From NCBI GenBank assembly GCA_001661245.1, contig KV454011.1, forward strand, positions 248,001 through 284,524: 36,524 nt of DNA, given 5' to 3'. The DNA is from Pachysolen tannophilus NRRL Y-2460 (taxonomy: Eukaryota). Positions 9,901 through 21,897 of this stretch are shown in pieces. The notes beneath the pieces were generated by a model. The model had not been told where the DNA came from, made no database searches, and saw nothing but the letters and a program-made list of their open reading frames with translations. The position numbers and the translations under genes were made by a program. The number at the start of each line of letters is the position of its first letter. Positions within the stretch are counted from its first letter, which is position 1.

Positions 9901-11299
9901 ATGTCGCAGGAGGAGGAGAAATTATATCATGAGGAGATAGAGGTTGATGAGTCTAATAGTGGGGAAAATTTAATTAGTGAAGATAAACCTGGGGATTTAG
10001 GAGAAACAAATACTGAAGTTACAGATGCTAAAGATACAGATGCTAAAGTTACAGATGCCGCTGATGAAGCCGAGGAGGCTGAAGAAGCTGGAGAAGCTGG
10101 AGAAGTTTCTGTGCTGAATGGCGATCATAATGATAATAACGACGATAATGATGACGATGACGATGATGATGATTTTTCAGATTTATCCGATATTGATGAG
10201 AATGAGCTTCCAGCAGCTTATTTAGCTGATAAGGAACTTCTTAAATTAAGTAGACACAAGAGGAAAACCGATGATTCAAGAGAAGATGAGACCAATAGTG
10301 ATAGAATTAATGAAGATCAATCAAGAGCAAAGGAAAAGAAAAGAGCTAAAAATAGAAGAACTGATGTTGAAGAAGAATTTAAAGATTCTGCACCTTTAAT
10401 TGAAAATGAAGATGAATTAACTAAGAAAAGAAGATTATTGGAAGAAAAAATAGGATATGGCATTGAAAAATAAGACAGTTAAAAGAAGAAAAGGTGAAGA
10501 TGATATTGATTCTATGCAAGATGAAGCAATTTCACGTTTAAGAGATGCAATGAGAGAAGCTGCTTATAAAGATGCAGATTGTGTTAATAATGGTCAACCA
10601 GCAATAAATAAACTTTCATTATTATCTACAGTAAGAGATGTACTTTTACGTGCTAATTTGGCTGATTCAATACTTGATAATAATTTATTAGAAAGTGTTC
10701 GACTTTGGTTAGAACCACTTCCTGATGCATCATTACCAGCTTATGAAATTCAAAGAACATTAATAGAAGCATTACCACAACTTCCTATTAAAACTATACA
10801 TTTAAGAGAAAGTGGATTAGGTAAAGTTATGATTTTTTATCAAAAATCTAAAAGAGTTGAACCTAATTTAAAAAGAATTTGTGAAAAATTAATTGGTGAT
10901 TGGACAAGAGCTATAATGGGGAGATCTGATAATTATAGAGATAAATCTATTAAACAAGTTGATTATAGTTATTTCAAACATAAGGCAGATATTCCAACAC
11001 AAGCTAGAACTCAACAAATTGTCAATGCCAATAAATCCTTGTACGAAGAAAGTGCTGCAAGAAGAAATAGAGCAGCTGCTCCAGCTGCAAGAACAACAGC
11101 TTATAAAGTTGCTCCAAGAGCTAATCTTGCTGGTATTAATAGTAGAAATAAAAGAACATTACCCTCTGGAGTTGGTACTGCATTAAATAAAGATGAAAGA
11201 TTCAAATCATTAAGTCAAAGATTACATTCTATGGGTATTAAAAAGAAAGGAGCTAAAAAAGGTGGGGTTAGTATTGAAGGTAAAGGCATATCTATGTAA
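9901..11299 (+). CDS. SPN1: Transcription factor Spn1/Iws1 (one extra base near 10450-10453 splits the ORF)
   Basis: [37 protein letters not shown] and KLIGDWTR; acidic N-terminus is in the preceding frame. Confidence 0.93.
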
Positions 11300-18153: not shown

Positions 18154-19143
18154 TTAGTACCTACCAAAGTCATCTTCATCTTGTCTGTAATTTGTTGCGT
18201 TTCCATAAGCAGTTCCTCTACCACCATAAGTTGTACTTTGTCCCGAATTATTACCATCACCGATAGAGTAAGCTGTATTACCTCCATAAGTAGTACCTGG
18301 TCTTCTATTTGATCTATCTAAATCTTGTAAAGATAATCCAATATTTGCAATTTTATCTCTAAGAGCCAAGATTGCTTTTATAACCACTTCATTTGGAGCT
18401 AAACTTCCAACAGTTTCAACATTTATATAAAATTTATTTGGTTTTGCATTAAAATCAAAAAGTTCATTTTTATTTGGAGGTTCTTCCCAATCACAATTTG
18501 TTGATTTTGGCCATTCTTTTTCAGCATCTTGTTCAAACCAATAATCTGTATGTTTTAATTTATTCCATGGATCATATTCAAATCCAACTGCAGAACATGG
18601 AGACCATTTTGCATGTTCTTTTGCAATTCCCTTTTTAGCAATACATTTTAATTTTAATTCTTGATGTTTTTTCAATTTACAAATTAAAACTCCATTTGAA
18701 TCTAAATCTCTTATAATTGGTTGTCCTAAAGAAGACATTGTAGTACTTGATATTTGATCATCTTGACGAACAACAACTAAATCCCTAGAATATATATTAA
18801 GAGTAGAATCACTTGTACATTCTGCTCGAAGTTCTAATTCAACAGAACATTTACCACAATGATCTTCACAAGTACAATCTCTTGAATATAATAAATCATC
18901 AATAGCATCACTATTTAATGGAATCAACCCTAACCGATGAGATATAAACTCATCTGCTAAAACAGAAGTATTCGTCTCTATTTCAACTAAATCAATAGCT
19001 AATGTGGCAACTTCTGCTAACATCGTTCTTCTAAGAGAATTAGCTAAAGCTAAATCAACACCTCCTAATATAAAATCAACTTCATCACGACCAGTCTTTC
19101 TAATCGTCACAGAAGGACCTTCTTCATTTATCTCAGTATCCAT
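18154..19143 (-). CDS. RPB3: RNA polymerase II subunit Rpb3
   Basis: [34 protein letters not shown] and [14 protein letters not shown]. Confidence 0.98.
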
Positions 19144-19402
19144 ATTCAAAACTCAAAACTTAAAACTCTCTTTCTACTCTTTCTTTCTCCGTCTTCTCTT
19201 GTTACCATTAAATGAATTAATTTATTCTTTTATCGTTGTTGTTGTTGGAAATGGCGAATATTTTCATATTTTTGGAAAATATTTCAAAACCTCCAGAAAT
19301 TGAGTCTGTACAAACTACTGAGAACAATTTTTATTTAATTGATGTTAAGAACCAACAACGACAACGACAACAAGCTGAGGATATATAAGTATAATATAAG
19401 GA

Positions 19403-19603
19403 ATGTCGATCAAGATTCCAGACTTGAGGTTTGAGCAATCGTTTATGAGAAGTTTGGAGAAGAATGCGTTGAGTAGTGATGGGTTTGAGTTGGAAGCAAA
19501 GACAAATAAAAAAAATCATCATCACAAGAGAGGTACTAATGATGATACTAATGATGGTACCAATGATGGTTCCATGAAACCGATTAAAGCTGTGATTACT
19601 CCT
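19403..19603 (+). CDS. DUF1770-family protein, N-terminal part (as assembled it runs into the His6 C-terminus)
   Basis: [10 protein letters not shown] motif. Its expected C-terminus ([20 protein letters not shown]...) lies on the minus strand at 19769-19972. Confidence 0.7.
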
Positions 19604-19702
19604 AATGGTAAAGTTGATTTAACATTTGGAAGTGCTTTAGATATCTTTGGAGGTGAATTAGTACGATTTAAAGATTGTTGCCAATGGAATAAAAATCATT
19701 AA
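19604..19702 (+). CDS. HIS6: HIS6 C-terminal 32 aa, inverted
   Basis: [32 protein letters not shown], compare S. cerevisiae His6 [31 protein letters not shown]. Confidence 0.92.
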
Positions 19703-19768
19703 AAAAAAAAAAAAAAAGAAAAGACAAAGATATATATATATATATATAGATGTATATACGTTCAACGA

Positions 19769-19972
19769 TCAACGTTTAAGATTAAACCTATTACTTTGTG
19801 GCTTGACATTAGTCAACCCCAATGACCCAAATACATGAATGCCAAAGTCCCTACCATGTTGGAAAATTTTTTGTAAAAAAGGTCTCAGTATCATTAACGC
19901 ACCTGCTATTGCAAATCCTTCAACAAGTGGTACCACAACGGTATCTTTAATCACGGTATATATGACAATCTG
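19769..19972 (-). CDS. DUF1770-family protein C-terminal part, inverted (fused in frame to His6 as assembled)
   Basis: Hydrophobic [31 protein letters not shown] is unlike His6 and fits the segment that follows PDLRFEQS in this fungal family. Confidence 0.7.
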
Positions 19973-20677
19973 ACTCAATTTCTCAACTAAAGTTAAATCT
20001 GATAAACTATTTGCTCCTCCTGCATATGTAACTGGCTTATCATTACACCATTTACCAAGCATCGATACTAAATTTTGATCAATTCCTTTACATAACCCTT
20101 CAACATCAGCAGCATGAACTAAAAACTCATCACAATATGGTGATAATTCTTTGAAAAATTCCATTGAAAGTTGTTTATCAGTAATAGTTTGCCATTTATT
20201 TATAGCAACAAACCATTGAATTTCACCATTATTACTAATTTTACAACGACAACTTAAATCAATTACTAAATGTTTAGAACCAACTTTATTAGAAATTTGT
20301 TCAAGTCTTTCTAATGAAAATTTCCCATCAGGGAAAAGCCATGAAGTTATAATTACATGTGATGCTCCATTTTCAATCCAATATTTGGCATTTCCATCAT
20401 TTATAGAACCACCAATTTGTAAAGCATCTGGCCAAGCTCTTAAGGCCTCTAACGCAACTCGATCATTCAGCTCATTGGTACCTAACTTGATAACATGAGT
20501 TCCTGTAATATTATTCTCTTTGTATAAATTCAGATAATACGAAGATGGTCTTGTAGATACAAAATTCGTTGAGAGTTTGTTATCTACCCCATTCAAATCA
20601 TCTCTTGAAAGAGTCCCTCCAACAATCTGCTTCACCTGCCCCGAATGAATATCTATACACCCTCTGAATCTTGTCAT
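19973..20677 (-). CDS. HIS6: ProFAR isomerase His6, N-terminal 235 aa
   Basis: [39 protein letters not shown] and YAGGA. Homology stops at LVEKLS. Lies between RPB3 and FAF1 as in S. cerevisiae YIL021W-020C-019W. Confidence 0.96.
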
Positions 20678-20771
20678 CTCTAAACTAGATTGTTGAAAGC
20701 TAATTGATAAAAGTTATTTTATAAAATGATGAATTTAAAGGAAAAAAAAAGAGAAAATAAAATAAAAATAG

Positions 20772-20782
20772 TGAAAAATTTT
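20772..20782 (+). promoter_or_regulatory. RRPE element TGAAAAATTTT upstream of FAF1
   Basis: Consensus ribosome-biogenesis motif ~70 bp before the ATG. Confidence 0.55.
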
Positions 20783-20853
20783 TTTAAATAAATCAGAACA
20801 TTAGATTTATGATATTTTTTTTAAATTATTATTTAATTATTAGTATATAGGAG

Positions 20854-21897
20854 ATGTCACATAAAGAAGATGAAGATGAGTATATGAAGGCGTTGGAATT
20901 ACAGAGACGTGCTTTTGAGGCCCAGTTTGGTTCTATCGAAAGCTTGGGTTATAAGGATAAATCGAAAATTGGAGAAGATGAAGATGAAGATGAAGATGAG
21001 CAGAGCTTGATTCAGAGTGCTGACGAAGATGACGATGTTGACGATGATGATGACGATATAGAAGAAGAATATGATGAAGAAGAAGAAGAGTTTGACTCTT
21101 TATCTTCTCATGAAGGTGAATCTAGAAGGAAAATACCTACAAAGCATAAACAAATGGGACCTAAAGTTATAAAATTTTCAGATACTTCATCAAGCTATCA
21201 ACCACCAACGAAAAAAATGCGTAAACTTTTGGATAGTGGTAGAATTCCTACTCTACAAGAGCAGAGACTGAAAGAGAAACAAGTGTTGAAGCAACAACAG
21301 AAACAGTTTTCTAAAATCAAGGACAAGAATGATCAAGAAAATTTGAAAAACGATTTGGAATTACAAAGATTACTTAGTGAATCACATATCCTTTCACTGA
21401 GTAATAATAATACATTTTCAGGTGCTGAATTAACTTTAAAAACAATTGATTATGAAAATCCAATCGGGAAGGCAAGAGTTAGAACATTAAATTCTAGAAT
21501 TAAACAAGCTTCTGAAATAAATAGTACAAAACAAAAAAATTTAGAAAAAATGCCAATGGCAATGAGAAAAGGTTTAATTAATAAGACACAACAAAGAATC
21601 CTGAAATATGAACAAGATGCCAAAAATTCAGGAATAACATTGAGTAAAGTTTCCAAGGGTAAATTTAGAGATTTAAATAGTGGGAAAGGTTCAACTTCTA
21701 TAACAGATCGTATTGGTACAAGTTTAGGAAATTCTAAAAAATCAAAGTTTAGAGAAAGAGGTTTAAATGTTAGTAGCGCAGTTGGACGAAGTACAAGAAA
21801 TGGTTTAATTTTAAGCAAGTCTGATTTGGAGAAATTAACAAACAAGCCAAGGGGTGGAGGTTCAAATGGCAAGAAGAAAAATGGTGGAAGACGTTAA
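20854..21897 (+). CDS. FAF1: 40S assembly factor Faf1
   Basis: LELQRRAFEAQFGSIESLGY, GKARVRTL, LEKMPMAMRKG and RERGL..VGRSTRNGL. Confidence 0.93.
   Translation: MSHKEDEDEYMKALELQRRAFEAQFGSIESLGYKDKSKIGEDEDEDEDEQSLIQSADEDDDVDDDDDDIEEEYDEEEEEFDSLSSHEGESRRKIPTKHKQMGPKVIKFSDTSSSYQPPTKKMRKLLDSGRIPTLQEQRLKEKQVLKQQQKQFSKIKDKNDQENLKNDLELQRLLSESHILSLSNNNTFSGAELTLKTIDYENPIGKARVRTLNSRIKQASEINSTKQKNLEKMPMAMRKGLINKTQQRILKYEQDAKNSGITLSKVSKGKFRDLNSGKGSTSITDRIGTSLGNSKKSKFRERGLNVSSAVGRSTRNGLILSKSDLEKLTNKPRGGGSNGKKKNGGRR

Follow-up and report, generated by a model that had tools for sequence, protein, structure and literature searches.

A short block at the HIS6 locus of the Pachysolen tannophilus NRRL Y-2460 reference assembly is very probably misoriented

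In the known HisA/His6 fold, the last beta/alpha unit is phosphate-binding. The family of these ProFAR isomerases (PF00977) has a solved yeast member, the His6 chain 2agk_A. Inversion of DNA, on the other hand, has been described in Pachysolen tannophilus itself: the flip/flop MAT region is presented in PMC6692504 (citing Riley et al., 2016) as an 8-kb region with 2-kb inverted repeats, which is reported to have inverted experimentally and to do so under nitrogen depletion. Finally, local misorientation in draft assemblies places a short block the wrong way round with respect to the reads, so that the adjoining genes seem cut short or fused, and automated annotation bridges the disruption with patched gene models. 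In this study, we analyzed a window of 36,524 nucleotides from the assembly of P. tannophilus NRRL Y-2460 (contig KV454011.1, positions 248,001 to 284,524), in which a block of 369 bp interrupts the HIS6 gene and a small convergent gene. This block is like the MAT region in that it concerns a DNA inversion in the same species, whereas it is much shorter, has no repeats and was present in one orientation in read-derived contigs. It resembles local misorientation in all of the features mentioned above, including a patched gene model (the protein record P0001); it differs from this class in that no repeat, gap or run of N was observed at the breakpoints and that the block is exactly conservative.

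As assembled, the region contains two convergent ORFs, one of 99 aa on the plus strand (19403-19702) and one of 302 aa on the minus strand (19769-20677). Sequence analysis revealed that, compared with the arrangement in which both genes are intact, 19604-19972 lies in inverted orientation. The first-pass annotation had proposed an inversion that reciprocally swaps the C-termini of the two genes, both in frame, and this observation proved correct to the base by both in-silico inversion and homology. When the block was reverse-complemented by script, a 267-aa His6 (junction LVEKLS/NGKVD) and a 134-aa small protein (junction AVITP/QIVIY) were obtained with no base gained or lost, exactly reproducing the two products that had been predicted. 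Moving both breakpoints by +1 or -1 in the script caused the loss of both frames, whereas moving them by +3 or -3 left the frames open. Based on the read-derived contigs, the breakpoints are located at 19603/19604 and 19972/19973 with an ambiguity of one base (T at 19603, A at 19973), and the block can therefore be given as 369 bases or, equivalently, as 371 (19603-19973). In the restored order, HIS6 and the small-protein gene are convergent, and approximately 66 bp of A-rich and TA-repeat DNA separate their stop codons. The chance of a double in-frame fusion had been put at 1 in 3, which is right and makes the in-frame aspect unremarkable; the reciprocal in-frame fusions would be a by-product arising at this chance, without a function. 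All features are listed in Table 1.

Table 1. Position, strand and supporting evidence of the features discussed in the text (coordinates of the window)
Feature	Position	Strand	Evidence
ORF, 190 aa, acidic	9901-10473	+	ORF list
ORF, 280 aa, with TFIIS-helical-bundle Med26 domain (PF08711)	10457-11299	+	Pfam scan
Rpb3-type gene	18154-19143	-	Pfam scan
Small membrane-protein gene, 5' part, 67 codons, with N-terminal motif	19403-19603	+	Aligns with N-termini of 10 relatives; PF08589 below threshold
Inverted block, 369 bp	19604-19972	.	In-silico inversion restores both genes; read-derived contigs join across both ends
HIS6, displaced 3' end, 32 codons and stop, fused to the small-protein gene in the assembly	19604-19702	+	Homology to His6 C-termini; 2agk_A residues 228-257
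Low-complexity centre of the block, A run followed by TA repeat; 3' intergenic region common to both convergent genes	19688-19761	.	Sequence
Small membrane-protein gene, displaced 3' part, 67 codons and stop, with hydrophobic segment and basic tail, fused to HIS6 in the assembly	19769-19972	-	Protein search, 21 matches
22-nt "intron" assumed by P0001, which ends the broken HIS6 ORF at 19906	19945-19966	-	Comparison of P0001 with the ORF
HIS6, 5' part, 235 codons (MTRF...LVEKLS), ProFAR isomerase (HisA/His6)	19973-20677	-	PF00977, 78 bits; 2agk_A residues 1-228

The assignment of HIS6 was supported by several lines of homology. The 302-aa chimeric ORF scored far above the cut-off of 23.6 bits for the Pfam family His_biosynth (PF00977), with a match to profile positions 4-210 of 228 only, and its His6 homology ended after LVEKLS. 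The same ORF aligned to 2agk_A up to residue 228, whereas the missing end of the enzyme was found on the plus strand, where 19604-19699 aligned to residues 228-257 (E 6.7e-14) and was 63-78% identical to the His6 C-termini of six relatives. Thus, the break at LVEKLS and the location of the true end on the plus strand, both of which had been noticed before any database search, were borne out by the solved structure. The two pieces abut at residue 228 and jointly cover residues 1-257 of the 260 in this chain, so that a score above the gathering threshold is combined with full-length agreement with a solved member of the family. In the protein search, the HIS6 sequence was 58-70% identical to named yeast His6 proteins. 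With the block turned, we observed no difference from the HisA/His6 family; as assembled, a foreign hydrophobic tail replaces the last 32 residues. Among the papers listed in a literature search, none concerned HIS6 of P. tannophilus by title and abstract, and most of them referred to hexahistidine tags.

The partner gene appeared to belong to a family of small membrane proteins. A search of 1.84 billion representative proteins with the minus-strand tail (19772-19972) matched 21 small proteins (best E 1.6e-8); they range from 93 to 185 aa in length, and each was matched within its C-terminal part. The N-terminal motif of the 99-aa ORF also opens 11 of the 12 relatives retrieved, the twelfth being without the N-terminal part. 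Alignment of the relatives further showed that a family motif, ITP-x-IV-x-Y-x-IKD, spans the restored junction. The first-pass annotation had labeled this gene DUF1770, a family now named ATG43 (PF08589). A match to this family does exist, in which the N-terminal motif aligns to profile positions 72-87 of 98, but the score of the 99-aa ORF was 21.4 bits, short of the cut-off of 25, and the profile does not extend to the hydrophobic C-terminal half; hence the label holds as a sub-threshold likeness of the motif and not as family membership. Similarly, PF08589 was matched by 8 of the 21 proteins found with the tail, all below 25 bits (best 24.3). These 21 proteins (P0122-P0142) form a family built of an N-terminal motif and a conserved hydrophobic C-terminal segment (ITPxIVxYxIIKDQxxMPxxQGF...RP...G), joined by a variable linker. 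Pfam reaches their motif only, below threshold, and no separate Pfam model exists for the conserved C-terminal half. Three tandem 12-nt units, GGTACTAATGATG-like, were observed at 19532-19571 on the plus strand; they encode a TNDD/TNDG repeat in the linker of the P. tannophilus protein and lie approximately 32 nt upstream of the left breakpoint.

To compare the orientation of the block in the assembly with that in sequencing data, Logan contigs, which are derived from reads and are not raw reads, were aligned over 18800-20900. Five public runs contain the locus, four of which were examined (X1, X2, X3 and X5; X4 was left out). X1, X2 and X3 came from one sample of one study, and X5 from a second study dated 2023. 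In all four runs and thus in both studies, contigs crossed both junctions in the restored orientation, which was the very observation that had been suggested as a test for an artefact and which was made here at the level of contigs. In each run, one contig followed the left flank to 19602/19603 and then continued from 19973/19972 running downwards, and another ran upwards to 19603/19604 and passed from there into the right flank at 19973/19974. The shorter side of these joints comprised 84-212 letters, and the mean word depth was 16-178. No other letter difference and no gap was found between the four runs and the window over these 2.1 kb. Junctions of the assembled orientation were absent from the contigs of the four runs of both studies, in which minority forms are invisible, as contigs drop rare variants and a minority orientation would not appear in them. 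The contig pieces of all four runs stopped at 19687 and 19762, on either side of the repeat-masked stretch 19688-19761. The share of sampled words was 0.95 in all five runs, which fits the loss of the words that span a junction (approximately 60 of the 1571 words) and fits equally well the absence of low-complexity words.

Public gene models were built on the inverted arrangement. The best match of the 302-aa ORF in the protein search was P0001, a hypothetical protein of 249 aa from P. tannophilus NRRL Y-2460. Over its first 237 residues, this protein is identical to the ORF translated with table 26; the model then omits 22 bases (19966-19945), continues through 19944-19909 and stops at a TAG (19908-19906). 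An intron of 22 nt is implausible, and the gene model is patched over the assembled orientation. P0001 also departs from a standard-code translation of the ORF in having alanine at CUG, which fits the CUG-Ala code described for P. tannophilus in PMC4937558. The 99-aa fusion ORF is likewise on record in the searched protein collection, from a 2.5-Mb contig. Protein searches with either ORF returned no intact His6 and no intact small membrane protein from P. tannophilus; the search with the small protein took a length range of 54-174 aa, within which the restored 134-aa form would match via its first 67 residues.

Our results suggest, with a high degree of probability, that the public reference assembly contains the 369-bp block (19604-19972) in the wrong orientation because of a local assembly or finishing error, and that this inversion is not a biological feature. 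An artefact had been one of several options in the first-pass annotation, and it is now the favored one, because the contigs of all four runs from two studies were restored at both junctions and none had the assembled order. Further reasons are that full-length conserved proteins result when the order is restored (the His6 pieces abut on 2agk_A, and ITP-x-IV-x-Y spans the other junction), that no substrate for a biological inversion, either inverted repeats at the breakpoints or a recombinase domain in the scanned ORFs of the window, was detected, and that P0001 requires its implausible intron to close the ORF. Read-derived sequence thus contradicts the assembly at both junctions, and the corrected order yields intact conserved genes. 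The DNA of the organism, as represented in the examined runs, would have the block the opposite way round, with HIS6 and the small membrane-protein gene both intact, and we infer that the source of the inversion is the assembly rather than a particular culture. On the other hand, an exact, conservative and reciprocal inversion with 1 nt shared at the breakpoints is no obvious product of any assembler that we could name. The same exactness resembles the rejoining of two breaks more than a typical assembler error, and it may point to a spontaneous 369-bp inversion that was really present in the culture or DNA behind the assembly, or in a minority of type-strain cells, while other cultures were normal. 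Such an inversion would have arisen by end-joining with 1 nt of microhomology and would have produced a his6-null allele and two fusion ORFs. The inverted arrangement is indeed what the public record and its gene model show, and a minority form would escape detection in contigs. Nevertheless, we consider this origin unlikely, since the contig path was restored and unbroken at the junctions in all four runs of the two studies and one of the examined samples may be the assembly's own source. Moreover, judging from the HisA/His6 fold, loss of the last beta/alpha unit should cause a need for histidine. Our literature search found no data on growth of the strain without amino acids, and the available text of PMC4937558 reports growth in rich medium only; the same text cites a second, independent draft assembly of P. 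tannophilus NRRL Y-2460. The majority DNA in the four runs encodes an intact HIS6, which speaks against the auxotrophic allele that had been considered earlier. A real inversion would amount to an ordinary spontaneous structural variant with loss of function that a reference genome happened to capture; HIS6 would be knocked out, and one of the two fusions would consist of a His6 barrel without its last beta/alpha unit, tethered to a membrane segment.

It appears highly improbable that HIS6 and the small membrane protein alternate between intact forms and forms with swapped C-termini, whether through a programmed or recurrent switch or in a heterozygous state. Both fusions are in frame, and the MAT region described in PMC6692504 demonstrates that P. 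tannophilus has a real invertible region; however, the double in-frame fusion has a 1-in-3 chance, and the long inverted repeats of the MAT element have no counterpart at the 369-bp block. A repeat search of the window found no inverted repeats at the breakpoints and no arm pair at either end. Comparison of one junction with the reverse complement of the other gave 19 matches in 60 positions with a longest exact run of 8 nt, a value which, in a comparison made with no control, we took as near chance for A+T-rich DNA. No recombinase, integrase or transposase domain was detected at E 1e-5 or better in 22 other ORFs of the window with a length of at least 120 aa; of the 25 ORFs on the list, that of HIS6 and two that lie antisense to a Ctf4-like gene were set aside. 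Thus, neither inverted repeats or recombination sites at the ends nor a recombinase encoded nearby, both of which are expected of an invertible element, were found, and the switchable state that had been put forward found no support at the breakpoints. Only the intact type of gene was seen in the relatives, and both orientations did not occur together in the contigs of any of the four runs, in which minority forms would not be visible. A heterozygote, or any mixture with two abundant orientations, is argued against because the k-mer graph should then branch and contigs should end at the junctions, whereas they run through both of them unbroken; the heterozygous option thus found no support either. 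Finally, it is scarcely credible that the error lies in the read-derived contigs and that the reference assembly is correct. All four contig sets share one assembly method, and all of them break in the same low-complexity centre. However, a contig that crosses a junction should require reads that supply the spanning words, given how k-mer assembly works, and the same junctions occurred in four runs of two studies over the whole range of depths. In addition, both conserved genes are intact across the restored junctions, an outcome that a random error would not produce.

The very probable misorientation of the block has practical consequences. The annotated His6 (P0001) has lost the 32 residues of its true end and terminates instead in a spurious peptide, which the model reaches via the 22-nt "intron", and the small membrane-protein gene is present in the searched collection only as the 99-aa fusion. 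Such a record would mislead any inference of histidine auxotrophy, gene loss, gene fusion or intron gain. The practical point is an error in the public reference genome of a CUG-to-alanine yeast, which has spread into protein databases, and the use of the present analysis is as an erratum for two gene models. The biological interest is small.

The neighbors of the block are ordinary yeast housekeeping genes. Across 18154-21897, the Rpb3-type gene is followed by the gene of the small membrane protein, by HIS6 and by a 347-aa acidic/basic ORF without a Pfam match. RPB3 and HIS6 presumably also adjoin in Saccharomyces cerevisiae. Elsewhere in the window, the acidic ORF and the Med26-domain ORF listed first in Table 1 overlap by 17 bases in different frames and look like one gene. 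The split of the ORFs at 9901-11299 would be accounted for by an indel of one base near 10451-10470, which may be real or may be a second assembly error.
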